From positions 450,049-514,048 of the forward strand of contig JAEPNB010000001.1 in assembly GCA_017643645.1 (NCBI GenBank): 64,000 bases of DNA. Direction: 5' to 3'. This DNA comes from Balneola sp. Lineage in GTDB: Bacteria; Bacteroidota; Rhodothermia; Balneolales; Balneolaceae. The notes under the pieces were generated by a model, which saw only the letters and a list, made by a program, of their open reading frames with translations, was not told the origin of the DNA and searched no databases. Shown in pieces: positions 2,686 to 36,654 of the stretch. Each line of letters opens with the position of its first letter. Within the stretch, counting starts at the first letter, position 1. The position numbers were made by a program, and so were the translations under genes.

Positions 2686-5600
2686 TGAAAAAGATTCTTT
2701 TCACAATAATTCTGTTCTTCGTTTTTGGCATTGTTTCTTTACAGGCTCAAACAAGCCCTCTTTACTATGATTATTCCCATAATCATCTGGAATGGTTTAC
2801 TATTGAAAGCGAACACTTCCTAATTCACTTTCAGGAAGGAAACAGCAGATCTGCAAAAGTTACTGCCCGTATTGCGGAGGAAATCTACGCTCCCATTACA
2901 GATTTATATCAGCTTGAACCTGATCAGAAAGTAAGTATCGTACTTAAAGACAGGGATGATTATTCAAACGGAGCAGCCTACTTTTTTGATAATAAGATCG
3001 ATATTTGGCTTCCGGCTTTAGATACTCCACTTCGTGGAACTCATAACTGGCTACGAAACGTAATTACACATGAGTTTACTCATATCGTTCAAATACAGAA
3101 AGCCATCAAAGGAAAACGCAAATATCCCATTTCGTACATTCAATGGTTAAGCTATGAAGATGTTCGAAGACCTGATGTGCTGTATGGTTTTCCGAATGGA
3201 ATTGCCACACTTCCCTTTGCTACTATCAATGTTCCTGCGTGGCTGGCAGAGGGTACAGCTCAGTATCAGCGGCAAGGCTTACTTTACGAAACATGGGATT
3301 CGCACCGCGATATGATTTTGCGGACAAGAATTTTATCTGATACATACTTCAGCTTGGAAGAAATGGGCACCTTCTCTTCTAAAACCAGTATTGAAAGGGA
3401 GACAGTATACAATCAAGGTTTTGCATTTGTGATCTATCTGGTAGATCGCTTCGGAGAAGAAGTAATCAGAGAAATATCAGCTGCACTTGCACAAAGGGGA
3501 GTATATAATGTTGCGGAAGCCATTGAAATTGCAACAGGAATTCCGGGCAAATTGGTATTTGTGGATTGGATAGTTGATCGAAAGCAATTCTATTCAAAAG
3601 CTATTGAAGGTTTAAACACTACCAAAAGTGACTATGTTGAAAAAGATGGTTTTTTCAATTTTTATCCAAAAGTTTCGCCTGATGGAAATTCAGTAGCATA
3701 TCTGTCTAATAAAGGGCGGGATTATAGTCTGGCTTCACTATATCTTAAAAATAAAAATGGAACTGAAGAAGTCGCTCAGGTTTCAAATCAACTTTTTGAT
3801 CAACATCAGCAACACACATCCGCAACTGAAAAGCCTTTAATTACATTTCTTGCTACCTCTTACTCTTTCTCTGCTGATGGAAATCAAATAGCTTATTCTG
3901 TTAACAAAGCTACCAGGTATGGGGAATCTTATCGTGATATTTTTATTTACAATCTGGAATCAAAAGATCATAAAAAGCTAACCCAAGCAGCCAGAATTGA
4001 AGCCCCGGCATGGAGCCCTGATGGAAGTGATATTGCAGCTATCCAGTATAACAAAGGAACACAAAACCTGATAATACTGGATCCTAAAACCAATGAAATA
4101 ACTAGTCTCACTTCTTATAAAAATGGAGAAACACTTTATACACCTGTTTGGAGTCCGGACGGAAACACTATCTACTTTGCATATGCAGACCGGGGCAATC
4201 GTTCGATCTTTAAATATAGTTTACTAACCAAAACTGTTGAACCTGTAATAGACAACGAGTTCGTTGATTCCAGAGATCCTTTTATATCACATGACGGGAA
4301 AAATTTATTTTACTCCAGTGATGAAAATGGAATATTTAATATCCACAGAATGGATATAGAAACCGAAACTTCTGTACAGATTACAAATGTAGTGGGTGGA
4401 GCTTTTATGCCTTTCGAGGACAATAGTGGAAACCTATATTATTCTGAATATGAAGCCGACGGATATAAGATCAAAAAGCATCTGCTCGATTCCACAAAAA
4501 GAGAACTCACAACTTACGACCCTGTATATTCTGAAACTGAAGCCTTTCCTGTTTCGGATTCTTTTACTCAGCTAAATAATTTCGATGACGAAGATCTTAC
4601 CGAATTCAGCTATGCAGAACATGCTGTTGCAGATACCGGCTCTTATAAGTTTGAAATGAAAACTGTTGGAGCAGATGATGACTATTCATACCGAGAGTAT
4701 GAAGACACTTTTACGGATTTTTCATTTTTCCCGATAATCCGTTTCGATAACTATTCAAAATTAAATGGTAGTAACGGATCTCTCATTAAAAACGGAAAGT
4801 TTGGAAAACTTGGGGAGAACTTGCTTCGTGATGTTAAACCGGGCGTCTATTTCGCTTCCCGTGATGTGTTAGACAAATTAAGTATTTTTGGTGGAGCCAT
4901 GCTTGGTGTCGGCTCTCTTCCTGCCGAAAGCATCGGAGGTTTTTTTAAGCCAAACCGTCTTTTTGAACTAGACCGAGATCTTTTTCTGATCGCAGAATAC
5001 CGAGGGCTTCCCTTTATTAAAAGAAGCTGGTCTCCTACTGTTTCTCTTGAACTGTATAATCTGCGTCGAAATGTTAAGGACGGTTTACAAATCGAGGAAT
5101 TTCCATGTACTTCTTGTGCCCAAAAAGATACTGTAAATGTTGATATAGCTTATCAGATTTGGGAGGCAAATTTGTTCTTCAGAAGTAAACTTAGTCGGCG
5201 TTCTTTGCTTGAACTTGGAATTGGTTATAGTCCATACAGAGTTGAAACGGACAATTTTTATTCTAACGAGTTACAGGCTTTTATAACCGGATCTTCATCA
5301 GAATACTTCAAAGGTACTACCTTATCTGCTTCTTACACGGTCGACTATTACGAATTTACTACTGATGCTGATATAGCTCCAACAGGTCTGAAGGGTTATT
5401 TACGCTATCAATATCAACCCGGAAAATTATTGGAAGAGTATGATATTGATGACGGTTCATTAGTTCCCATATTCAAAACTTCAAAAAACCATTCTGCAGA
5501 ATTTCATGGCCGATATGGGTTCAAGCTACCTTCCGGTCAGGCGCTTCAAGCCAGAGCAAGAGGCTTTGCTTATTTCAATAATCCGAATGATTCTTTTTAC

Positions 5601-8591: not shown

Positions 8592-9539
8592 GTGGATATT
8601 TCCGACTCCGACCCGGTTTCACTATTCGGATTACACGATAAAAATATTCAGATTCTGGATAGATCATTCCCGGAAGTAAAGATCAATGCCCGCGGTAATC
8701 GTGTTAAAGTAATTGGCTCCAGCGAGGAAGTTGATCTGGTTAAGAATATCATTGAAGGCATGATAGGTGTTGCTGACCGCAAAGGCTCTGTTTCCGAAAA
8801 CGAAGTTAAAACGCTGATCACTCTTAAATCAGGTGAAAGAAAAGCCAGAACTCCTCTTCCTAAAAATATCAAGGAAGGCGACCTGATTCTTTATACGTAT
8901 GATGGGATTCCTGTTCATGCTAAAACTCCCGGACAGAAACGAATCGTTACCACATCAAACCAAAGTGATATTCTTTTTTCAATTGGTCCTGCCGGAACCG
9001 GAAAAACGTACACTTCTGTTGCTCTTGCTGTAAAAGCGATGAAGGAACAACGAGTAAAAAAAATCATACTTGCAAGACCTGCAGTGGAAGCCGGAGAAAG
9101 TTTAGGTTTCTTACCGGGCGACTTGAAGGAAAAAATCGATCCGTATCTTCGCCCACTTTATGATGCTTTGGAAGACATGATCGAGCCCGATAAACTCGAT
9201 TACTATCTTACCAAGAATATGATCGAAATTGCCCCATTGGCATATATGAGAGGTAGGACCTTGAACAATGCATTTGTGATCCTGGATGAAGCTCAGAATG
9301 CTACCAATGCTCAAATGAAGATGTTCTTGACCAGAATCGGGTTTAATAGTCGTGCGATCATTACCGGAGATGTTACCCAAACCGATCTTCCCAGAAAACA
9401 AGAGTCAGGTTTGATCACAGTTCAGGATATTTTAAAAGATGTGGACGGAATTGATTTCGTATATCTGAGTGAAGAAGATGTAGTACGTCATAAGTTGGTG
9501 AAGGATATTATCAACGCCTACGAAAAGTTTGAATCTTAG
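8592..9539 (+). CDS. PhoH-like ATPase (PhoH/YbeZ family)
   Basis: Walker A GPAGTGKTY, ILDEAQN, ITGDVTQTDLP, typical length. The listed GTG start is uncertain because the frame is open back to 8505. Confidence 0.85.
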   Translation: MDISDSDPVSLFGLHDKNIQILDRSFPEVKINARGNRVKVIGSSEEVDLVKNIIEGMIGVADRKGSVSENEVKTLITLKSGERKARTPLPKNIKEGDLILYTYDGIPVHAKTPGQKRIVTTSNQSDILFSIGPAGTGKTYTSVALAVKAMKEQRVKKIILARPAVEAGESLGFLPGDLKEKIDPYLRPLYDALEDMIEPDKLDYYLTKNMIEIAPLAYMRGRTLNNAFVILDEAQNATNAQMKMFLTRIGFNSRAIITGDVTQTDLPRKQESGLITVQDILKDVDGIDFVYLSEEDVVRHKLVKDIINAYEKFES

Positions 9540-27690: not shown

Positions 27691-27722
27691 AGAAGCCTCT
27701 GGATAAGGGGCTTCTTTTTTTT
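27691..27722 (+). terminator. Intrinsic terminator after ftsZ
   Basis: AGAAGCCTC-tggataa-GGGGCTTCT stem of 9 bp with one G.U, followed by T8 (27715-27722). A second imperfect hairpin lies at about 27643-27677. Confidence 0.75.
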
Positions 27723-27844
27723 GATCGCTGATTTCGGATCACTGATTATTTTGATTATTCGCTGATTTTCTTCGCCTCGGACTAGCGTCCTTGCTTGTTT
27801 ACTTTATCCCCCTTGTTCGGTATCAATTCAATATCCTCTCACTA

Positions 27845-27921
27845 CTAACGAATGTGAAAAGTCTATAGATTTAGATACAAGAAGAACAAACTCTAGATGT
27901 CTACATTTGATTCGACATAAC
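27845..27921. repeat. Nested palindromic element, copy E1 (alpha type, inverted orientation)
   Basis: AACGAATGTGAAAAGTCTATAG ... TAGATGTCT..TTCGACATAAC. It is the homologue of E3, and together with E2 it forms the left ~220-bp direct repeat. Confidence 0.6.
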
Positions 27922-27946
27922 AAAAAAGATAATATAAAAAGTCTCT

Positions 27947-28050
27947 GTCATTTCGAGATGAACGAAGGCATAGCCTAAGTGACCGAGAAATCTAAAAATT
28001 TATGAAACCTATTCCACTATTTGTAGATTTCTCCCTCTGGTCGAAATGAC
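27947..28050. repeat. Nested palindromic element, copy E2 (beta type)
   Basis: Outer arms GTCATTTCGA / TCGAAATGAC and inner arms GAGAAATCTA / TAGATTTCTC. Loop ...TATGAAACCTATTCCACTAT... Confidence 0.8.
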
Positions 28051-28086
28051 AAAGACGTTGTTTAATAAACCAAGCAATTATCAACT

Positions 28087-28428
28087 GTGTCATACTATGT
28101 CTACATAACAACCAATTCTAGCAAAACTACTTTGTATGTTGGCATGACTAATGATATTCCATCCAGAATATTGGAACATGGATTGAACGCTGGAAACCCC
28201 GAAACTTTTGCTGGAAAATATCATTGCTTTAATCTTCTTTATTACGAAGAGTTCCAATATGTAAATGATGCTATTGCAAGAGAAAAAGAGATCAAGAAAT
28301 GGCGCCGAGACAAGAAAGAGCAATTAATTAACTCTGTAAATCCTGAATGGAGATTTCTTAATAAGGAACTAGGCTTATACCCTTTTGGCGATTATGCTGA
28401 TGAACGTAACATCAAAAACAGAAGATAG
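28087..28428 (+). CDS. Small stand-alone GIY-YIG nuclease-family protein
   Basis: 113 aa with a GTG start. YYVYITTN...LYVGMTNDIPSRILEH, then ...Y.E...A..REKEIKKWRRDKK, which is the GIY-(10-11)-YVG, R, E and N-type layout of the GIY-YIG fold. There are no additional domains. Confidence 0.85.
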   Translation: MSYYVYITTNSSKTTLYVGMTNDIPSRILEHGLNAGNPETFAGKYHCFNLLYYEEFQYVNDAIAREKEIKKWRRDKKEQLINSVNPEWRFLNKELGLYPFGDYADERNIKNRR

Positions 28429-28439
28429 AAAACCACATT

Positions 28440-28523
28440 GTAACTTCGAACGAATGTGAGAAGTCTACAGATTTGGATACAAGAAGAACAATTCTTAGAT
28501 GTCTCCCTTCGGTTCGACATGAC
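28440..28523. repeat. Nested palindromic element, copy E3 (alpha type, inverted orientation)
   Basis: GTAACTTCGAACGAATGTGAGAAGTCTA ... TAGATGTCTCCCTTCGGTTCGACATGAC. The reverse complement of its left half closely matches the right arm of E5/E6 (TAGATTTCTCACATCCGTTCGAAATGAC). Confidence 0.7.
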
Positions 28524-28549
28524 AAAGGAGAATAATAGCTAACCAATTT

Positions 28550-28651
28550 GTCATTTCGAGATGAGTGAGATGAAATCGAACGACCGAGAAATCTAAAAAT
28601 CTATGAAACCTACTCCACTATCATTAGATTTCTCCCTCTGGTCGAAAAGAC
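28550..28651. repeat. Nested palindromic element, copy E4 (beta type)
   Basis: GTCATTTCGAGATGA...GACCGAGAAATCTAAAAATCTATGAAACCTACTCCACTAT..TAGATTTCTCCCTCTGGTCGAAAAGAC. It is near-identical to E2 outside one ~20-nt segment. Confidence 0.8.
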
Positions 28652-28738
28652 AAAAGCGTTGTTTAATAGTGACATAAATAACAAAGCACTATTGTATATA
28701 AACGTAGAATATATTTTATTTTATGGAAACAGCTTCTT

Positions 28739-29188
28739 ATGGAACCATTTGAACTTAAAACAGATACATCTACATTTTACATGAAGGCCCTGAAGGCATT
28801 GGGGTTCATTCTTTTAGGATTTACAATCGTAATAACTCTCCTTACTTATAAAAACGGTGAACCCATCAATTGGATGAATACTTTCACATTAACTGTTTGT
28901 AGTTTAGCTTTTGCACTTTTTCCGGGTTTCGCAACGATGTCAGAGATTCACTTCAATGAAGAAGGAATATTCCTCAAAAACCATTCCTATCACTGGGGTG
29001 AGAAAAAAGAAATAACGTGGGATAAAATTTCCAGTATTCGTGTAGATAAAAGTCAGCTTTCTATAAAAAATACGGTCGGGTCTTCAGAAAAAATCAAGCT
29101 CCCCATTTATACTAAAGACCAAATCGAAGGGTTGAAATCTTATCTCAAAGAAGTTGCTTCCCAAAAAGAAGTAGAGTATTTGGAATGA
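28739..29188 (+). CDS. Hypothetical membrane protein (two TM helices plus a small soluble domain)
   Basis: 149 aa. Hydrophobic segments LGFILLGFTIVITLLTY and FTLTVCSLAFALFPGF. It is flanked by E4 and E5. I recognise no family with confidence. Confidence 0.55.
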   Translation: MEPFELKTDTSTFYMKALKALGFILLGFTIVITLLTYKNGEPINWMNTFTLTVCSLAFALFPGFATMSEIHFNEEGIFLKNHSYHWGEKKEITWDKISSIRVDKSQLSIKNTVGSSEKIKLPIYTKDQIEGLKSYLKEVASQKEVEYLE

Positions 29189-29198
29189 ATGAGTTTTT

Positions 29199-29303
29199 GT
29201 AATTTCGAGATGAACAAAGGCGCAGCCAGAATAACCAAGAAATCTAAACATCTACGAAACCTACTCCACTATTTGTTGATTTCTCACATCCGTTCGAAAT
29301 GAC
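29199..29303. repeat. Nested palindromic element, copy E5 (beta type)
   Basis: GTAATTTCGAGATGAAC...CCAAGAAATCTAAACATCTACGAAACCTACTCCACTATTTGTTGATTTCTCACATCCGTTCGAAATGAC. Confidence 0.75.
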
Positions 29304-29468
29304 AAGAACGTTGCCTGCTTCCCGACCCTAAAGGGTCTCCTTGTTTAAGGTTTAAATCAATTGTGAAATTACAACGAAAAACTAAGTTAGCCGCTACCAC
29401 ACCTATTACTTATTCCATTATCCACCAATAACTAATCCACTTTGTTACTTTGCCACTCAACAACTCTG

Positions 29469-31286
29469 TCACTTCTTCAACCCCAACCAAGCATTTCTTC
29501 TCTCCACCTCTTTTCTACCAGCATTTTCATCAATCGTAGTTTGTAGTGTTTTGGAAGCTTCCAGCGTCACATCAAAGGTTTTTTCCTGTCCCCATCTTTC
29601 GATCACTACTTTAATTACATCGCCCGGTTTGTGATTTGCTAAGATCTCATCAACATTTTGTACTGAATTCAGATCCGTTCCTGAAATAGAGATAAACACA
29701 TCTTCTGATTCTATTCCTGCTTTGTAGATCGGACTGCCAACCGTTGCGTTTGAAGTCATTTTCCATTCATCATTTCGCTTTCGGATGGTTTCGCCTAAAC
29801 TCGCTTTGTTCGGTTCCGCTAATTCTAGCTTCACTCCTACTTCCGCAAATAATGATTCGTAATCAGGAAGTTTGCTGTCAAAGATGTAATTCTCAAAATA
29901 GTTGTCAGCGAATTCTTTGCCGGCATACTCTGCCAAAGCAACCTGCAGATCTTTAACCGTGTACGGAACTTCTGTCTTGCCGTATTTCATCCAAACGGAT
30001 TTCATAAAGTCGTCGAGATTTAGTCCTTTGTCTAAAGTTCTGAGAGAAAGATCTAATCCCAATCCAAGAACACTTCCGTATGTATAATATGACACAAACG
30101 TATTCGAGCGATTCACAGGATCTACTGATCGCGCCGCATCTACAAACGGAGCTTGATAACTCATTTCGATCGGATTAAAGTAATTTCTCCCCGGAGAATT
30201 GATCACGTAATTCAATCCGCCGTCTAATCCTTCTACATATTGCTTATCTGTTCTGATGTCAGCTCTGGCAAGTGTCAAGCCGGTGTAATAGCTCGTAAAT
30301 CCTTCGGCAAACCATAGCTCACCGCTCATATTCGCTTCTTCAAAATCGAAAGGCTCCAGGCTTGCCGGACGAATACGCTCTACATTCCATGCATGAAAAA
30401 ATTCGTGAGAGATAGTTCCGATACTGGTTTCTCCCAAAGGTCGGTCTAAGGGTTTTGAACTCACTACGTATGTAGAATTTCTATGCTCCATTCCATCTCC
30501 GCTGGCGTTGGGCATATAGCACGACAAAAATGTGTACTCATCGTAATCAAACTTCAGCAACTCGCCATAAATATCTCTCTGCGCTTTTACGATCGCCATC
30601 ACCTTGCCAAAATATTCATCCACTTCTTTATCTGAAGCCGGAGTGTGTAAAGCCAATCGGATATTCTGTCCGTCTACTTTTTCTTCACGGAAATGCATAT
30701 CTGCAATTTCGGTCGGACTGTCTAAAAAGTACTGAAGATCTTCAGCGTAATAGGTATTTCCTTCCACATGTTTTAGCTGTGTAGCGATTTCCCAGTTCAG
30801 ATCGTCTCTTTTGTTGAAAGTGATCTCGATCGGACGGTATTCATAGTTTCGTGCCCATGCAAAAGTCGCCGGCATGTTCATATGCGCATGCGTTTCGTCA
30901 ATTCCGGTGTACGTCCCTCCTCCTCTGTTCGCGTATAAAGTGTAGCTGAACTTCACGGTTCCATGATGACCGCTTACATTCCATTGATGTGGATTTGGTC
31001 GTGTTATTTCCAACTCATTTCCGTTTCCGTCTACGGCAGTTACATTGTACACGTTCTTGGCAAATTCATGAAGTGCATATCGTCCCGGAGACGTTCTGCT
31101 CATTCTAACTTCCAGCACTTTCTTTTCTACATTCGGAAAGGTGACTGAGATTTCTGCTTCGTGATGAACCGCATTTTCGAATGAGATCTCGTACTGATTA
31201 TGGGTTTGGGCAGAAGCCACATTCGTGGCGAATATTAAATATCCAACAAGGAATATTGAATAATGAAGTGCTAGAACTTTTTTCAT
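29469..31286 (-). CDS. M61-family (glycyl aminopeptidase-like) metallopeptidase with C-terminal PDZ-like domain
   Basis: HEFFHAWNVERIRP zinc motif, with a downstream ...WFAEGFTSYY. I prefer the start at 31286 (MKKVLALHYSIFLVGYLIFATNVASAQ signal peptide) over the track start at 31379. The C-terminal ~90 aa are PDZ-like (GSPIYKAGIESEDVFISISG). Confidence 0.8.
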   Translation of the reverse strand: MKKVLALHYSIFLVGYLIFATNVASAQTHNQYEISFENAVHHEAEISVTFPNVEKKVLEVRMSRTSPGRYALHEFAKNVYNVTAVDGNGNELEITRPNPHQWNVSGHHGTVKFSYTLYANRGGGTYTGIDETHAHMNMPATFAWARNYEYRPIEITFNKRDDLNWEIATQLKHVEGNTYYAEDLQYFLDSPTEIADMHFREEKVDGQNIRLALHTPASDKEVDEYFGKVMAIVKAQRDIYGELLKFDYDEYTFLSCYMPNASGDGMEHRNSTYVVSSKPLDRPLGETSIGTISHEFFHAWNVERIRPASLEPFDFEEANMSGELWFAEGFTSYYTGLTLARADIRTDKQYVEGLDGGLNYVINSPGRNYFNPIEMSYQAPFVDAARSVDPVNRSNTFVSYYTYGSVLGLGLDLSLRTLDKGLNLDDFMKSVWMKYGKTEVPYTVKDLQVALAEYAGKEFADNYFENYIFDSKLPDYESLFAEVGVKLELAEPNKASLGETIRKRNDEWKMTSNATVGSPIYKAGIESEDVFISISGTDLNSVQNVDEILANHKPGDVIKVVIERWGQEKTFDVTLEASKTLQTTIDENAGRKEVERRNAWLGLKK

Positions 31287-31463
31287 AGATAAAATTTTTG
31301 AATTGAACATCTGAAGATGAGGAGCTTTATGGATTGGTGCAACTGATGTTACATCTCTTTGCGTATTCATTGCCATCATAAAGAAGTCGTCCTGATCCCG
31401 AAATATCGGGTCGAAGAATCTGCACTAATAGCTAAGTACCTTCGCTGATAATTCAAAGATTTT

Positions 31464-31541
31464 GTCATATCGATTGTAGCGAGATATCTAAAAATTGCCT
31501 TTAAAAGTATGTTTAGATTTCTCACATCCGTTCGAAATGAC
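31464..31541. repeat. Nested palindromic element, copy E6
   Basis: GTCATATCGATTGTAGCGAGATATCTAAAA...TTTAGATTTCTCACATCCGTTCGAAATGAC. Confidence 0.75.
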
Positions 31542-31556
31542 AAGGTTTGGAAGCAT

Positions 31557-31648
31557 GTCATCCTGAGGATGCTTCCGAAAGATCTGCGCAAATTCATACA
31601 TGTTCAGATTAACAAATATGCAGATTCTTCGCTTTCGCTCTGAATGAC
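31557..31648. repeat. Nested palindromic element, variant copy E7
   Basis: GTCATCCTGAGG...AGATCTGC ... GCAGATTCT...CTCTGAATGAC. It has the same two-tier palindrome architecture built from different words. Confidence 0.6.
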
Positions 31649-31657
31649 AATATTGCT

Positions 31658-31804
31658 GTCATCCCGAAGTGGAAATGCTTAGTTGAAGGAATAGCTTTTA
31701 ACACGAGGGATCTCAAATGATAGATCTGTCCACATTTTTGATTTGAGACCCTTCGGCGTATTACACTTTTGGAACATTATTAAATTTGGACCGCTCAGGG
31801 TGAC
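31658..31804. repeat. Degenerate variant copy or copies, E8
   Basis: GTCATCCCGAAG ... GGGATCTCAAAT / ATTTGAGACCC ... CTTCGG, and a detached right arm CTCAGGGTGAC at 31794-31804. The boundaries are uncertain. Confidence 0.4.
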
Positions 31805-31876
31805 AGCACACGTCTGACATTTACCTCGATACCTCGTTCTTCTATCAAGTGGATTTAACTCAGCATCATTAGTTTT

Positions 31877-31971
31877 GTCATTTCGAAGGAGCTTTCCGAC
31901 TGAGAAATCTAAAGATCGTCTTTAATACTGATTCTTAGATTTCTCTCCCGAATTATCGGGAGAGAAATGAC
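31877..31971. repeat. Nested palindromic element, copy E9
   Basis: GTCATTTCGAAGGAGCTTTCCGACTGAGAAATCTAAAG ... TTAGATTTCTCTCCCGAATTATCGGGAGAGAAATGAC. Confidence 0.75.
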
Positions 31972-32059
31972 AGCCTCGTGGACATTCAAGACTTTTCTAC
32001 GCTATAGCTTTTTGTAACATATAATTTTATCAGCTACATTCGTGTATTAAATAAATAGA

Positions 32060-32647
32060 ATGTATATACGCAATGCGTGTATGCATAAGTTGTGCTCAAT
32101 TAAAATGACCAAACTGACAGACATATTAAAAGAAACTATTCCTCTCCAAGAACACTCTTGGAAATGGATGTTTGAAAATGAAGACGGTCATTTACCGACA
32201 ACTGAACATCTTGACCAAATTTTCCCATTGGACTCTAAGGCTTCGAATTACCTATGGAAATTTGAGAATGAAATAAAGCTTAACACATTCGACCCTGAAA
32301 CCAAACGATATTTTAAGGACTTTGAGAAATTTAGTTTCGGTGACAACATGGAGAAAGAAGTCAAAAAATGGCTTTTCAATCGACAAGTCAAATTTGACAA
32401 CATTGTTTACATGACCTTTCAACCGACAGTTGCTTTTGCAATGACATGGAAAATGGCAATCCATTATTCAGCGAATTTATTCTTTGGACACGATACGACC
32501 ATTTGGGACAGGACATTAAATTGGGCATTGTACTATGACCACAATGACGTATTCTATTTTGCCAAGAACAGAATTTACGATGGACAAGAAGAAAAACTAA
32601 AATTGGACAGACTAATAAAAGAAATAACTGTGCACAACAACACCTAA
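32060..32647 (+). CDS. Hypothetical protein (orphan)
   Basis: 195-aa ORF. An alternative start at 32105 (MTKLTDILKE...) seems more likely. It is Trp/Phe-rich and has no recognisable motifs. It lies between repeat-rich DNA and the 3' end of hmgA. Confidence 0.5.
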   Translation: MYIRNACMHKLCSIKMTKLTDILKETIPLQEHSWKWMFENEDGHLPTTEHLDQIFPLDSKASNYLWKFENEIKLNTFDPETKRYFKDFEKFSFGDNMEKEVKKWLFNRQVKFDNIVYMTFQPTVAFAMTWKMAIHYSANLFFGHDTTIWDRTLNWALYYDHNDVFYFAKNRIYDGQEEKLKLDRLIKEITVHNNT

Positions 32648-32754
32648 AGCTAATGTGGCTAGTACGTCTTCGGCAGACACTGACGCGGTACACGATAACG
32701 ATCTCGGTTCTTTAGAAACTTACGAAAAGCCGCACTAGCTTTAGCCAAACCGTT

Positions 32755-33912
32755 TCACTTCCCCTCTAACCAAGAATACGGATAGCTCGGATCGTCTAAT
32801 CGCATTGCTTCTTCAGTGACGTACATCGGCTTAAAGGTATCGATCATCACTGCATATTCATCTGTTTCTTCAGCGCCGATGCTGGCTTCTGCTTTTCCGG
32901 GATGTGGTCCATGTGGAATTCCTCCGGGATGAAGCGTGATGCTTGCGTAATCCATTCCTTTTCTGCTCATGAAATCGCCTTCCACATAGTACAGCATTTC
33001 ATCTGAATCTACATTTGAATGATTATATGGCGCCGGAATAGCATCCGGATGATAATCGAATTTCCTTGGACAGAAACTGCAAACCACATAATTATGTCCA
33101 CGGAAAGTTTGATGTACCGGTGGCGGTTGGTGAACGCGTCCGGTGATCGGCTCAAAATCCTTGATATTGAAGATCCACGGATATAAATATCCATCCCAGC
33201 CAACTACATCTAACGGATGATGATCAAAAGTATAATGATGCATTCTTCCGCCCTTCTTGATACGGACTTCAAACTCTCCATCGCCTTCAAAGAACAATTG
33301 TTCTTGTGGTAAGCGGAAATCACGTTCGCAAAATGGTGAGTTTTCCATGAACTGTCCCATTTCTGATAAATAGCGTTTTGGGAAATCAATGGGTCCGGTA
33401 GAATCTACGGTCAGTACACGGTTCTTATCCGTATCAAAATTCATTTGGTAGGTCGTTCCACGCGGGATGTAAATGTAATCTCCGTATCCGAAATCCAATC
33501 TCCCAAAGTTGGTTTGCAGATGTCCTGTTCCTTCATGAATGAACAACAACTCATCATGTTCTCCATTTCGATAGAAATAATTCATGGCGTCGGTTGGTCT
33601 CATCACTCCGATCTGAAGATCGTTATTGAACATCAAAACCTTCCTTCCGGTAATGGCATCTCCGCCTGTTGGAATATCTTTGGTCTTCAAATGACGATGA
33701 CGAAGCGTTTGATCATCCGCCGCTTTTACTTCGATCTTTGCTCCTTGCTCGATCTTGGTAACTCGTGTCGGCATATGATAATGGTACAGCAATGAGCTGT
33801 TTCCATGAAAACCTTCAGCTCCGAATAATTCTTCCGTAAACAATTCTCCGTCCGGTCGGCGAAAAACCGTATGACGTTTATGCGGGATGGTTCCTAATGC
33901 GTGGTAGTACAT
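32755..33912 (-). CDS. hmgA: Homogentisate 1,2-dioxygenase
   Basis: 385 aa. Family-typical stretches are MYYHALGTIPHKRHT, EELFG.EGF, HQPPPVHQTF and SITLHPGGIPHGPHPG. Confidence 0.9.
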   Translation of the reverse strand: MYYHALGTIPHKRHTVFRRPDGELFTEELFGAEGFHGNSSLLYHYHMPTRVTKIEQGAKIEVKAADDQTLRHRHLKTKDIPTGGDAITGRKVLMFNNDLQIGVMRPTDAMNYFYRNGEHDELLFIHEGTGHLQTNFGRLDFGYGDYIYIPRGTTYQMNFDTDKNRVLTVDSTGPIDFPKRYLSEMGQFMENSPFCERDFRLPQEQLFFEGDGEFEVRIKKGGRMHHYTFDHHPLDVVGWDGYLYPWIFNIKDFEPITGRVHQPPPVHQTFRGHNYVVCSFCPRKFDYHPDAIPAPYNHSNVDSDEMLYYVEGDFMSRKGMDYASITLHPGGIPHGPHPGKAEASIGAEETDEYAVMIDTFKPMYVTEEAMRLDDPSYPYSWLEGK

Positions 33913-33961
33913 TTTAATGAATTAAGAATGAAAAATTTAAAATTAAGAATTCTTCTTTTTT

Positions 33962-34046
33962 GTCATATCGAGCAAAGCGAGATATCTAAAGATAGCTTTT
34001 AAGTAACTCTTTAGATTTCTCAGTCGACAAGCTCTTTCGAAATGAC
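33962..34046. repeat. Nested palindromic element, copy E10
   Basis: GTCATATCGAGCAAAGCGAGATATCTAAAG ... CTTTAGATTTCTCAGTCGACAAGCTCTTTCGAAATGAC. By my alignment, 80 of 85 nt are identical to the reverse complement of E11. Confidence 0.85.
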
Positions 34047-34084
34047 AAATCATTCTTAATTTTTCATTTTGAATTTTGAATTTC

Positions 34085-35221
34085 TTACAAGTTTCCTCGT
34101 AATTCTTGTTCGCGTTCGATGGCTTCAAAAAGTGCTTTGAAGTTTCCTTTTCCGAATCCACGAGCACCTTTTCGCTGAATGATCTCATAAAACAATGTTG
34201 GACGATCTACTACAGGTTTCGTAAATATCTGAAGCAAATATCCTTCATCATCTCGATCAACCAGAATTCCAAGATCAGCGAGTACATCAATGGGCTCATC
34301 GATCTTCCCTACTCTTTCTTCCAGTTCTTCGTAATAGGTTGTTGGCACTTTAAGAAAGTCCACTCCCCTGTCACGAAGTTTGGTCACCGTATCAATAATA
34401 TCTGCTGTGAGTAAAGCTACGTGTTGAACTCCAGGTCCTTCAAAGAAATCCAGATATTCTTCGATTTGTGATTTCTTCACACCATCAGCCGGCTCATTGA
34501 TCGGAAATTTTATCATTCCCCTACCGCCTGCCATCACTTTACTCATCAAAGCGGTGTATTCGGTAGAAATATCTTTGTCATCAAAACTGATGTATTGCGT
34601 GAAACCAAGAACATCTCTGTAAAAAGCTACCCAGGTGTCCATTTCACCTAATTCTACGTTTCCAACACAGTGATCCACAAACTGAACACCCACAGGTTCG
34701 GTCTTGATCAGACTTTCTTTAGCAACAAATTTCGGAAAGAAAATACCATCGTATTCTGTTCTGTTTATGAAAGAGTGAATTACATCACCGTAGGTTCTGA
34801 TGGCTGCTTTTCTGATCGTTCCGTCGCCGTCAGTTATGGAATGCGGCTCTTCAACAACTTCCGCTCCTCTTTTAACGCTTTCCTTGAATGCACGATCTAC
34901 ATCTTCCACATGCATTGCAATATCTTTGATCCCATCTCCATGTTTATGCACAAACTCCGAAATGGGTGACTTACTGCTTAACGGAGCTGTTATCACAAAT
35001 CGAATATTTCCTTGCTCCAGATAATAAGAAGATCTATCCCGAACTCCGGTTTCCAAACCTGAGTAAGCTTTTAGTTGAAATCCGAAAGTGGTTATGTAGT
35101 AGTGAGCGGTCTGCTTAGCATTGCTGACATAGTGCTCCACATAATCCACGTCCTGTAATCCCAAATGGTCATCAAATTCTTCTTCTATTTCTCTTTCCAG
35201 TACGTTGTCTTGATCTTTCAT
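34085..35221 (-). CDS. hppD: 4-hydroxyphenylpyruvate dioxygenase
   Basis: 378 aa with two VOC-fold halves. Motifs are HGDGIKDIA, FVDHCVGNVE, GVQHVAL, LLQIFTKP, RPTLFYEIIQR and GFGKGNFKALFEAIE. Confidence 0.92.
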   Translation of the reverse strand: MKDQDNVLEREIEEEFDDHLGLQDVDYVEHYVSNAKQTAHYYITTFGFQLKAYSGLETGVRDRSSYYLEQGNIRFVITAPLSSKSPISEFVHKHGDGIKDIAMHVEDVDRAFKESVKRGAEVVEEPHSITDGDGTIRKAAIRTYGDVIHSFINRTEYDGIFFPKFVAKESLIKTEPVGVQFVDHCVGNVELGEMDTWVAFYRDVLGFTQYISFDDKDISTEYTALMSKVMAGGRGMIKFPINEPADGVKKSQIEEYLDFFEGPGVQHVALLTADIIDTVTKLRDRGVDFLKVPTTYYEELEERVGKIDEPIDVLADLGILVDRDDEGYLLQIFTKPVVDRPTLFYEIIQRKGARGFGKGNFKALFEAIEREQELRGNL

Positions 35222-35592
35222 CGTTATATTTTTACAAACTGTTCAGGTTGGCATTCAACAGTACTGCAAAATATTGAGTTGCTGTAGCTCTTGAATGAAA
35301 TTTCGGTCTACCCAACTACTACTTTTATCCGATTATTGAAAATAAATGACTGCTTTGCCTTTTACTAGATAATTATACTTCATTGAGTAGAACTATTAAT
35401 GTTGCTAAGCACGTCATTTTTGATCCATTTTATCTCCGGATATCTAAATTTGGAATGATGTTTAATAATAACTTTATAAAATGTATGAAAGGAAATGAAT
35501 AAACAAAAATCAATAGTCTGCTTTTATTATATTCAAGGAATGTAATTCTTTTAAAGGATGTTATGCTACTGAAATAAAAAAGCGCTTACACC

Positions 35593-36537
35593 ATGGAAAC
35601 ACAACAGCAATTAGACGACTTTCAAGCCCGAATTGACGCCGGCGAAAAGATAGAACCCAAAGACTGGATGCCTGAGCGCTATCGGGAACAGATCATTCGC
35701 ATGGGTAGCCAGCACGCACATTCTGAGATCGTAGGTATGCTTCCTGAAGGAAATTGGATCTCCAGAGCTCCATCACTTAAAAGAAAATTAGTACTTCTTG
35801 CTAAAGTTCAGGATGAAGCCGGACACGGATTATATTTATACAGCGCTATTGAAACTCTTGGAGTGAGACGCAGTGAACTTATCGATCAATATCTGTACGG
35901 GAACGCTAAATATTCCAGTATTTTCAATTATCCGACCTTAAGCTATGCGGATGTTTGCGTGATCGGTTGGCTGGTTGATGGTGCGGCTATTGTAAACCAA
36001 ACTAAGTTAGCGCATTCCAGTTATGGACCATACGCAAGAGCGAACCTTAGAATTTGTAAAGAAGAAAGTTTCCACAAAAAGCAGGGTTACGAAATGGTAG
36101 CCAAGCTTGCTGAAGGAACTCCGGCTCAACGCAAAATGGTGCAAAGTGCTGTTGATCGTTTTTGGTGGCCAACTTTGATGATGTTTGGACCAAATGATTC
36201 TAACTCTCCAAACAGTGCTGAATTACTGAAATGGCAAGTTAAACTTAATACCAACGACGAGCTTCGTCAACATTTCGTAGACAGAGTGGTTATGGAAGCT
36301 GAAGCAGTTGGGTTAACGCTTCCTGATCCGGATCTGAAATTTAATGAAGAAACCGGTCACTGGGAATTTGGTGAAATTCCGTGGGATGAATTTTGGGACG
36401 TAGTAAAAGGAAATGGCGTTATGAACCGCGAGAGAATTAAATCACGAAGAAAAGCACATGAAGATGGAGCTTGGGTTCGTGAAGCTGCACAAGCGTACGC
36501 CAGAAAGAAAAATTTAAGCCGCGAAAAGGCTTCTTAA
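35593..36537 (+). CDS. paaA: 1,2-phenylacetyl-CoA epoxidase, catalytic subunit A
   Basis: 314 aa. Di-iron ferritin-like motifs are present ([29 protein letters not shown]). It is followed by paaB, paaC and paaD. Confidence 0.9.
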
Positions 36538-36556
36538 GATAATTAAACAAAGAATT

Positions 36557-36641
36557 GTCATTTCGAAGGAGCTTGTCGACAGAGAAATCTAAAGAGCTAT
36601 TTAAAAGCAATCTTTAGATATCTCGCTTTGCTCGATATGAC
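36557..36641. repeat. Nested palindromic element, copy E11 (inverted relative to E10)
   Basis: GTCATTTCGAAGGAGCTTGTCGACAGAGAAATCTAAAG ... CTTTAGATATCTCGCTTTGCTCGATATGAC in the paaA-paaB spacer. Confidence 0.85.
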
Positions 36642-36654
36642 AAAATCCAAATTA

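Follow-up and report, generated by a model that had tools for sequence, protein, structure and literature searches.

A small GIY-YIG nuclease gene of Balneola sp. and its flanking hairpin repeats: a probable divergent branch of the Ssn system

Why does the gene of a small nuclease lie between two copies of a palindromic repeat of ~220 bp? This question is raised by a locus of a marine Balneola sp. within a stretch of 64,000 nt (assembly GCA_017643645.1, contig JAEPNB010000001.1, positions 450,049-514,048 of the forward strand), which we call the window and whose coordinates we use throughout. The Balneola sp. metagenome-assembled genome GCA_017643005.1 carries a sequence identical to the window. 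The gene lies shortly downstream of ftsA-ftsZ and encodes a protein of 113 amino acids (aa) with a GIY-YIG domain. We conclude that this protein is very probably an enzyme of the Ssn family of nucleases, and that the palindromes around its gene are its cognate Ssn-related hairpin repeats.

A previous reading of the window, made from the sequence only, had proposed that the segment 27845-28068 recurs at 28445-28667. A global alignment bears this out, with 186 identical positions over 232 columns (80.2%), and a repeat finder returned sub-blocks with 91% identity over 87 nt and 82% identity over 89 nt, spaced by 601-603 nt. As that reading had also proposed, the nuclease gene stands alone between the two copies: the sole open reading frame (ORF) with a family match there is 28087-28428 (+), which matches Pfam GIY-YIG with E 4.7e-15. 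A third palindrome of the so-called beta type, E5, is found where it had been placed, at 29198-29304, past an ORF of 149 aa. No transposase or integrase is called from ftsA to paaB in the gene and Pfam list, again in agreement with the sequence-only reading. The arms that it had given for the palindromes (GTCATTTCGA/TCGAAATGAC outside, GAGAAATCTA/TAGATTTCTC inside) are exact in E2, whereas the right outer arm of E4 has one mismatch, and E1 and E3 belong to the same family but have diverged and carry other stems. Rfam returned no match at gathering thresholds in the whole window, and none at E up to 1 in 27700-29400. According to this database, the palindrome family is not a described RNA family.

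Hairpin anatomy and association with the nuclease gene

We analyzed the architecture of the repeats in 218 unique complete elements from other loci. Their termini are TGTCAT...ATGACA and their median length is 95 nt, and in each of them the two halves are placed head to head, so that the tags point outward. The two-tier anatomy initially proposed, in which the outer arms pair with each other and so do the inner arms, did not hold, because the conserved pairing links the outer with the inner arm of the same half. In 211 of the 218 elements, the variable bases of the outer arm (GTCATnTCGA) and the inner arm (GAGAnATCT) within one half pair with each other, and all four Watson-Crick pair types occur at this position. 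When only the 69 elements with differing halves are considered, 62 keep the pairing within a half, and in none does the outer arm pair with its opposite counterpart. In addition, the block between the arms forms a mini-hairpin of 2 bp in 41 out of 48 cases, compared to ~13 expected by permutation. On the 109 distinct half-elements used for covariation, the proposed hairpin has 96.9% of cells paired and compensatory changes at five of seven pairs, and none of 500 shuffles reaches the observed value. Within the same 109 half-elements, G3, T4 and C5 of the tag are each at least 90% conserved, the C after the stem is nearly invariant and the tandem G.A/A.G of the hairpin is invariant.

Since pairing stays within each half, the selected unit is a half-element hairpin of ~27 nt, 5'-TGTC-[ATTTC]-GA-[NN xxx NN]-GA-[GAAAT]-C-T, and the longer palindrome of ~85-110 nt is a head-to-head dimer of two such hairpins. 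This covariation supersedes a fold that we had considered, namely a four-way junction with outer-outer and inner-inner stems and two mini-hairpins. We also considered integron attC cassettes, because genes alternate with imperfect palindromes at this locus, and rejected them since elements are also found among housekeeping genes, an integrase is missing and the arms pair in a different way.

We then measured the association between repeats and nuclease in 80 loci encoding relatives of the window protein, extracted with 10-kb flanks each from reference genomes across Bacteroidota. The element model had 178 matches in these loci, 156 of which lie within 500 nt of the nuclease gene. To exclude circularity, the model was rebuilt from E5-E9 only, which are the copies that do not adjoin the nuclease. 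The rebuilt model placed 138 out of 160 matches within 500 nt of the GIY-YIG gene, and 122 out of 140 outside Balneolaceae. A comparison of adjacency with expectation, which had been suggested for the whole genome, was run on these Bacteroidota loci: elements occur in 59% of the GIY-adjacent intergenic regions and in 2% of the others from the same loci (81 out of 137 and 10 out of 489, respectively; odds ratio 69, P-value 1e-52).

The reverse comparison was based on 89 loci of viral and metagenomic contigs picked by the DNA pattern of the element alone. Only two of these element-seeded loci have a GIY-YIG gene; among the 55 with 700 nt or more on either side, none has such a gene at a distance of 500 nt or less, and no other protein family recurs beside the elements. 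In the window as well, the palindromes are not confined to the nuclease, since four further copies (E6-E9) adjoin unrelated genes. The gene is thus almost always found with repeats and most repeats lie far from the gene, which is the pattern known from repetitive extragenic palindromic (REP) sequences and their REP-associated tyrosine transposases (RAYTs). These data strongly support a specific, REP/RAYT-like partnership between the small GIY-YIG nuclease and the palindromic family. The partnership had been suggested from the sequence of the window, and experiments show that homologous enzymes bind such hairpins and cut at them (PMC11893778).

Two layouts of gene and repeats are detectable. 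In about 30 of the 80 loci the layout is nested, with the ORF inside one element, between its left and right halves. These halves form perfect inverted repeats of ~35 bp in the nested units of Mucilaginibacter, and the stop codon of the gene lies inside the right arm in Tenacibaculum and Ekhidna. In the other layout, which is that of the window, the ORF lies between complete elements that flank it. Among orthologous loci, one layout can replace the other.

Complete doublets of this family are also carried by nine viral-classed contigs of IMG/VR (L097-L105), among which only one has a weak GIY-YIG match, 7.6 kb away.

Membership of the Ssn family

The sequence-only reading knew of no described partnership of this form. 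Such a system was published in 2025 by Chenal et al. (Nat Commun), who described Ssn as single-domain GIY-YIG nucleases corresponding to CDD cd10448 (GIY-YIG_unchar_3), associated with NTS repeats and Ssn-related motifs (SRMs); 71% of the Ssn homologues have at least one SRM nearby (PMC11893778). SsnA of Neisseria meningitidis requires the single-stranded form of its hairpin for binding, cuts a few nucleotides upstream of it, and is inactive on double-stranded DNA, RNA and the reverse strand. Cutting depends critically on the three nucleotides that precede the palindrome and binding on the C that follows it, and mutations of Y6, Y17 or E64 abolish cleavage (PMC11893778). The same authors note the likeness of Ssn units to insertion sequences and to REP/RAYT (PMC11893778).

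The placement of the window protein in this family, made on sequence grounds, would rest on homology with SsnA, on the catalytic residues and on a C-terminal motif. Pfam GIY-YIG covers residues 3-78 of the protein, which has no other domain, and its size falls within the limit of 150 aa used for Ssn. It is 100% identical to a protein of the Balneola sp. metagenome-assembled genome. In pairwise BLASTP it shares 38% identity (E 5e-18) with the 94-aa SsnA orthologue of N. gonorrhoeae, whose gene carries Y6, Y17 and E64 exactly as published for SsnA. Residues Y6, Y17 and E66 of the window protein align with these catalytic positions. With other Ssn homologues it also shares the C-terminal motif KKW.R..K..LI...NP[DE]W..L, of which the NP[DE]W..L part is absent from BH0048, the nearest solved UPF0213 protein. 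The nearest solved structures had suggested a UPF0213/YhbQ (Slx1-like) label (E 2e-4), which we downgraded because the match to Neisseria SsnA is much stronger. The defence-system models of PADLOC gave no match.

A tblastn search of a 7.3-Gb database of annotated plasmids and megaplasmids found homologues in Sinorhizobium, Rhizobium, Sphingobium, Novosphingobium, Azospirillum and Neisseria, those of rhizobia with E 1e-17 to 6e-19. Hairpins with a CGTC tag flank such homologues: the gene is nested in S. meliloti and N. aromaticivorans, it lies between head-to-head CGTC dimers inside the suf operon in A. lipoferum, and it is flanked by dRS3-type repeats in N. gonorrhoeae. The A. lipoferum gene (plasmid AZO_p3 of strain 4B, L227, 4989-5282) stands between sufB and sufC with one dimer on each side, and this placement looks like an insertion. 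Several PLSDB records (among them NZ_CP119140.1, NZ_AP026896.1, CP090106.1 and L229) are 'plasmids' of chromosome size, 2.2-4.9 Mb, with 2.17 Mb for that of N. gonorrhoeae. They are evidently mislabelled chromosomes or chromids, which is a caveat for any plasmid statistics.

The locus has the NTS-ssnA-NTS type of architecture, with E1/E2 upstream and E3/E4 downstream of the gene, and an nGTC tag 5' and a C 3' of the stem. The conserved GTC of the tag and the C of the tail are the bases that mutagenesis of SsnA found critical. Several observations weigh against the assignment. All characterised Ssn enzymes come from outside Bacteroidota/Balneolota, and about a quarter of the 80 Bacteroidota loci lack an element at up to 500 nt from the gene. 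Chenal et al. require homology to SsnA with E <1e-10 and an SRM match within 500 bp on both sides (PMC11893778). The tblastn match to Neisseria, at 4e-9, falls just short of that value, and the published SRM search sequence has no match in the whole window. The SRM pattern, which works on proteobacterial controls, occurs within 500 bp of the gene in one of the 80 loci and on both sides in none. The pattern fails here because it needs a G/C-rich stem, whereas the Balneola stem is A/T-rich with a G.A tandem. The Bacteroidota branch uses a divergent cognate hairpin. We therefore regard the locus as a divergent addition to the Ssn kind and not as a new kind of element. As the SRM pattern misses a phylum-level branch of Ssn hairpins, the published counts of motif-less Ssn genes are probably too high.

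Our analysis covered repeat anatomy, covariation, conserved association, strain polymorphisms and protein homology, and the activity of the window protein would follow from its homology with the characterised SsnA enzymes. On this basis, the protein would bind each folded half-element hairpin only in single-stranded DNA, with the C just after the stem as a critical base. It would then hydrolyse the strand a few nucleotides 5' of the hairpin, where the GTC of the tag would be critical for cutting, and would spare double-stranded DNA, RNA and the complementary strand. The predicted substrate is a single strand with TGTCATTTCGA-NNxxxNN-GAGAAATCT, and the predicted hairpin sequence is TGTCATTTCGAGCAAAGCGAGAAATCTA. 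Within a doublet there would be one cleavable hairpin per strand, at the outer end of that strand. In the cell, the enzyme may modulate the recombination of single-stranded DNA around a strain-variable region; a role in restricting single-stranded DNA is reported from Neisseria.

Repeats of the window, strain variation and rival explanations

We searched the window with a nucleotide hidden Markov model (nhmmer) built from the window copies; a gapless palindrome scan with 14-nt arms had found nothing, because the arms carry bulges. The model detects exactly nine elements in the 64 kb, all within 27842-36647 and all head-to-head doublets with outward tags (Table 1). They are intergenic, often between convergent genes, and the window copies fold better than shuffled controls (z -2 to -5.3). 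A structure-only scan returned 15 hairpins, all at 27946-36642, two of which are a further stem variant. Their tag is TGTC in 14 cases and TGTA in one.

Table 1. Positions of the Ssn-like gene, the hairpin doublets and the neighbouring ORF in the window
Feature	Position	Strand	Description	Evidence
ssn-like gene	28087-28428	+	113 aa, GTG start, single-domain GIY-YIG	PF01541, E 4.7e-15
149-aa ORF	28739-29188	+	Between E4 and E5; predicted membrane segments	
E1	27842-27925	-	Degenerate head-to-head doublet, alpha type	nhmmer 2e-12; alignment
E2	27946-28051		Complete doublet	DNA fold -19.4 kcal/mol, z -5.3
E3	28438-28527		Doublet; halves with different, internally compensated stems	
E4	28549-28652		Doublet, direct-repeat partner of E2	Fold z -3.3
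E5	29198-29304		Doublet beside the 3' end of the M61 peptidase gene	
E6	31463-31542		Short doublet; stems ATATC/GATAT left, ATTTC/GAAAT right	Fold z -4.6
Cluster	31557-31805		Tagged hairpins of other stem subfamilies	Sequence reading; structure-only scan
E7	31876-31972		Doublet	
E8	33961-34047		Doublet between hgmA and HPPD genes	
E9	36556-36642		Doublet between paaA and paaB	

The elements around the gene differ in their state of preservation. E1 is 82% identical to E3, with its left tag and stem decayed. In E2, the sense hairpin of the + strand (27946-27993, TGTC-ATTTC-GA-[28-nt block]-GA-GAAAT-CT) holds in its 28-nt block an AGGC/GCCT hairpin of its own, and the sense hairpin of the - strand spans 28025-28051. 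The two stems of E3 are ACTTC/GAAGT at 28439-28466 (+) and ATGTC/GACAT at 28497-28524 (-). The sense hairpin of E4 on the + strand is at 28549-28594, and its right half has one stem mismatch (TCGAAAAGAC). Members of the cluster between E6 and E7 are TGTC-ATCCTGA..., TGTC-ATCCC-GA...GA-GGGAT-CT at 31657-31713 (+) and TGTC-ACCCT-GA...GA-AGGGT-CT at 31746-31805 (-). From E6 to E7, these hairpins form a cluster of ~0.5 kb that resembles a bacterial interspersed mosaic element (BIME). Several hairpin subfamilies thus coexist in the window with a single Ssn-like gene. Yet other hairpin variants, such as GTCATTCCGGA, are found in a related strain (L002). E8 lies within a larger A/T-rich inverted repeat at 33920-34095 (AAGAATGAAAAATT... 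/ ...ATCATTCTTAATTTTTCATT), between two genes on the same strand, which may be an older hairpin or terminator with the doublet inserted into it.

Strain L002 has an FtsZ protein identical to that of the window and lacks the nuclease gene. Positions 11496-14819 of L002 replace 27721-29468 of the window and hold a gene of 1026 aa with Laminin_G_3 and Por_Secre_tail domains. The interval between ftsZ and the M61 gene is a strain-variable island. L002 also lacks E6-E9 in the syntenic spacers, with a decayed remnant only at the position of E5. The replacement gene encodes a type IX secretion substrate and stands where the nuclease, the 149-aa ORF and E1-E5 lie. This variability recalls Neisseria, in which NTS repeats cluster around genes for variable surface proteins.

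A group of near-identical strains (L087-L096) has one, two or three tandem units of 117 nt upstream of the gene and three downstream, and lacks the 149-aa ORF. The segment 28655-29195, which holds this ORF in the window, replaces one E4-type repeat unit of strain L087. Pfam, NCBIfam and PADLOC gave no match for the ORF, which never occurs in another context and sits like a cassette between two doublets; it is probably a passenger outside the system. In strain L088, ~9032-9455 is a tandem duplication of 424 nt when compared with L087 and with 31463-31972 of the window. Its breakpoints lie inside the loops of E6 and of an E7-like element, and a hybrid doublet was created. This duplication is an unequal recombination between repeats, which act as recombination substrates. 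Together with the polymorphism in unit number, it indicates that the arrays are plastic, and it makes repeat recombination an observed route to direct repeats that bracket intervening DNA.

In S. meliloti (CP090106.1, L226), an internally deleted nuclease unit at 4667-4863 lies directly upstream of an intact one (gene 5001-5285). It joins the CGTC hairpin and a 45-nt leader to the last ~80 nt of the gene and the downstream hairpin, is 93% identical to the intact unit and looks like a derivative of the miniature inverted-repeat transposable element (MITE) type caught forming. In a metagenomic contig (L104, 4020-4125), the right terminus of a doublet (GGTCGAAATGACAGAGAA) is tandemly duplicated 9 nt downstream, which could be the footprint of slippage or repair at the cleavage-proximal end.

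Target-site duplications of 2-8 nt did not exceed permutation levels in the 218 elements. No recently copied nuclease units were found, as paralogues of the same genome share only ~73% DNA identity and several nuclease loci keep their synteny across species. A search for empty sites had been proposed from the outset. The filled-versus-empty comparison at E8 gave no clean pair, the L002 spacer being too diverged for boundaries to be drawn, and no target duplication came from the 218 elements. Mobilisation of the repeats by the nuclease and homing of its gene, as first imagined from the sequence, are both still hypotheses. Because of the strain polymorphisms and of the lack of target duplications and recent gene-unit copies, we ascribe the ~220-bp bracket to array duplication or recombination. 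It would consist of two copies of a two-doublet array module, derived from duplication or unequal recombination among units, and would not be an insertion-generated target duplication.

GIY-YIG enzymes are hydrolytic and form no covalent intermediate for strand transfer. This chemistry bears on the possibility that the gene within inverted hairpins is a miniature insertion sequence and the doublets are non-autonomous derivatives spread by the nuclease, as in REPIN-RAYT systems, except that a GIY-YIG nuclease would replace the HUH transposase. The nested ORF in about 30 of 80 loci, the ~35-bp perfect inverted repeats of Mucilaginibacter and the stop codon within the right arm in Tenacibaculum and Ekhidna all suggest such a unit, and the S. 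meliloti deleted copy beside an intact one would be one of its derivatives. The dispersal of most elements away from any nuclease (0 of 55 element-seeded loci), the presence in the window of E6-E9, absent from L002 in spite of its identical FtsZ, and the lack of any other recurrent protein family point in the same direction, and the authors of the Ssn work raised the same idea (PMC11893778). Besides the hydrolytic chemistry without covalent intermediate, the lack of target-site duplications argues against autonomous movement, and so do the ~73% identity of paralogues and the synteny of several loci across species, which leave no recent jumps of the gene unit. Moreover, the changes in copy number between strains are explained by repeat recombination, and no clean pair of filled and empty sites was recovered. 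We regard an autonomous element as a tentative possibility, on balance doubtful.

A free-standing homing endonuclease, which cuts empty doublets so that repair pastes the gene into the loop or between doublets, would account for the two fixed spots, loop or junction between doublets, where the gene is always found, for its sporadic presence (absent in L002 despite the identical FtsZ) and for the A. lipoferum gene inside an operon, between sufB and sufC. It would also be in line with a low-scoring hit to the model for group I intron endonucleases; yet this hit (TIGR01453) reaches 17.8 against a cutoff of 56, the window protein lacks a DNA-binding domain, its characterised homologues leave double-stranded DNA uncut, the gene is present in only 2 of the 89 element-seeded loci and its paralogues are old. 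Homing is therefore improbable. We consider it more unlikely still that the nuclease is a bystander in a repeat-rich spacer, with hairpins that are terminators or REPs mobilised by a RAYT-type Y1 enzyme. RAYTs of subclass 2.6 are reported mostly from Bacteroidetes, with atypical secondary structures at their flanks (PMC6006769), the elements lie in intergenic DNA, in many cases where convergent genes meet, and our view of the host genome is one of 64 kb only. On the other hand, the association is kept across phyla and survives the intergenic control, no transposase recurs near the elements, Di Nocera et al. found no RAYT with CGTC REPs at its flanks (PMC3733652) and biochemistry links Ssn enzymes to these hairpins (PMC11893778). 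Membership of the Ssn family, with the palindromes as cognate repeats, is the reading that we prefer.

Comparison with known systems

The partnership of a GIY-YIG nuclease with hairpin repeats was already known, and the window shows no new kind of system. With Ssn and its NTS/SRM repeats, the locus shares a single-domain GIY-YIG protein of ~100 aa with the equivalents of Y6, Y17 and E64, a gene flanked on both sides by oriented hairpins with an unpaired nGTC tag and a 3' C, repeats that are also dispersed and clustered elsewhere, and an association of gene and repeats across phyla. It differs in the Balneola hairpin, which is A/T-rich with a 5-bp stem, a tandem G.A/A.G, a 2-bp mini-stem and a 3-nt loop, and in its host, which is outside the Pseudomonadati stressed in the published work (PMC11893778). 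The specificity TGTC-ATTTC-GA...GA-GAAAT-C would be a new one for the single-stranded DNA tools that motivated the study of Ssn.

Similarities extend to transposon-related systems. Like REP/REPIN-RAYT and BIMEs, reportedly described by Nunvar (2010), Bertels and Rainey (2011) and Ton-Hoang (2012), the locus has tagged hairpins, inverted doublets that form long hairpins and arrays of alternating orientation, as well as an enzyme gene in low copy number that is inherited mostly vertically and lies among its own repeats, and it lacks target duplications. The difference lies in the enzyme, a hydrolytic GIY-YIG nuclease and not an HUH Y1 transposase, and in the tag, TGTC and not GTAG. IS200/IS605 elements share the subterminal hairpins recognised in single-stranded DNA and the lack of target duplication; unlike them, the locus has no TnpA/TnpB gene, a unit of only ~0.45 kb and no evidence of excision or insertion. 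A classical transposon with terminal inverted repeats and MITEs differs through the absence here of a 2-8-nt target duplication in 218 elements and of any transposase called nearby. GIY-YIG homing endonucleases such as I-TevI and Seg also differ, as the window protein has 113 aa without an extra domain and scores 17.8 bits with TIGR01453, whose cutoff is 56.

In the older literature, the Balneola repeats appear to correspond to the CGTC-tagged REPs of Di Nocera, De Gregorio and Rocco (BMC Genomics 2013), whose tag is often TGTC (PMC3733652). These have 8-9 fully paired bp, a stem that starts with A-T, a loop of 4-5 nt and a 3-nt CCA tail, are mostly head-to-head dimers and were found in several phyla, Bacteroidetes included. 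In Neisseria, the CGTC-1 family is dRS3, which forms the core of the NTS repeat. The CGTC-tagged REPs are described as lacking a dedicated transposase, and no RAYT flanked by them was found (PMC3733652). The two groups have in common the unpaired TGTC tag, A-T and then T-A as the first pairs of the stem, a short tail, head-to-head dimers, the presence in Bacteroidetes and the lack of an associated tyrosine transposase. The Balneola stem spans nine positions and has two G.A mismatches. The loop (in most cases 3 nt, or else a long inserted hairpin) and the CT[T/A] tail also differ and count against the correspondence.

The link between Ssn and these 'orphan' CGTC REPs is an inference of the present analysis; Di Nocera et al. 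are absent from the references of Chenal et al. Such a link would join the work on Ssn to that on CGTC REPs, whose question was which enzyme serves those repeats. Ssn-type nucleases might be this missing dedicated enzyme for the entire CGTC/TGTC-tagged REP superfamily, with the doublet-nested gene as an autonomous unit of ~0.45 kb and the dispersed doublets as its non-autonomous progeny, a proposal that we hold as speculative. The nested gene, the deleted copy, the array polymorphism and the duplication by repeat recombination are natural cases that bear on past and present mobility of the unit. If the proposal were true, these nucleases and repeats would form a second REPIN-RAYT-like system of independent origin, in which the enzyme is a hydrolytic nuclease of single strands, and the Bacteroidota/Balneolota would hold a branch of it that had escaped notice, with a G.A-tandem hairpin.

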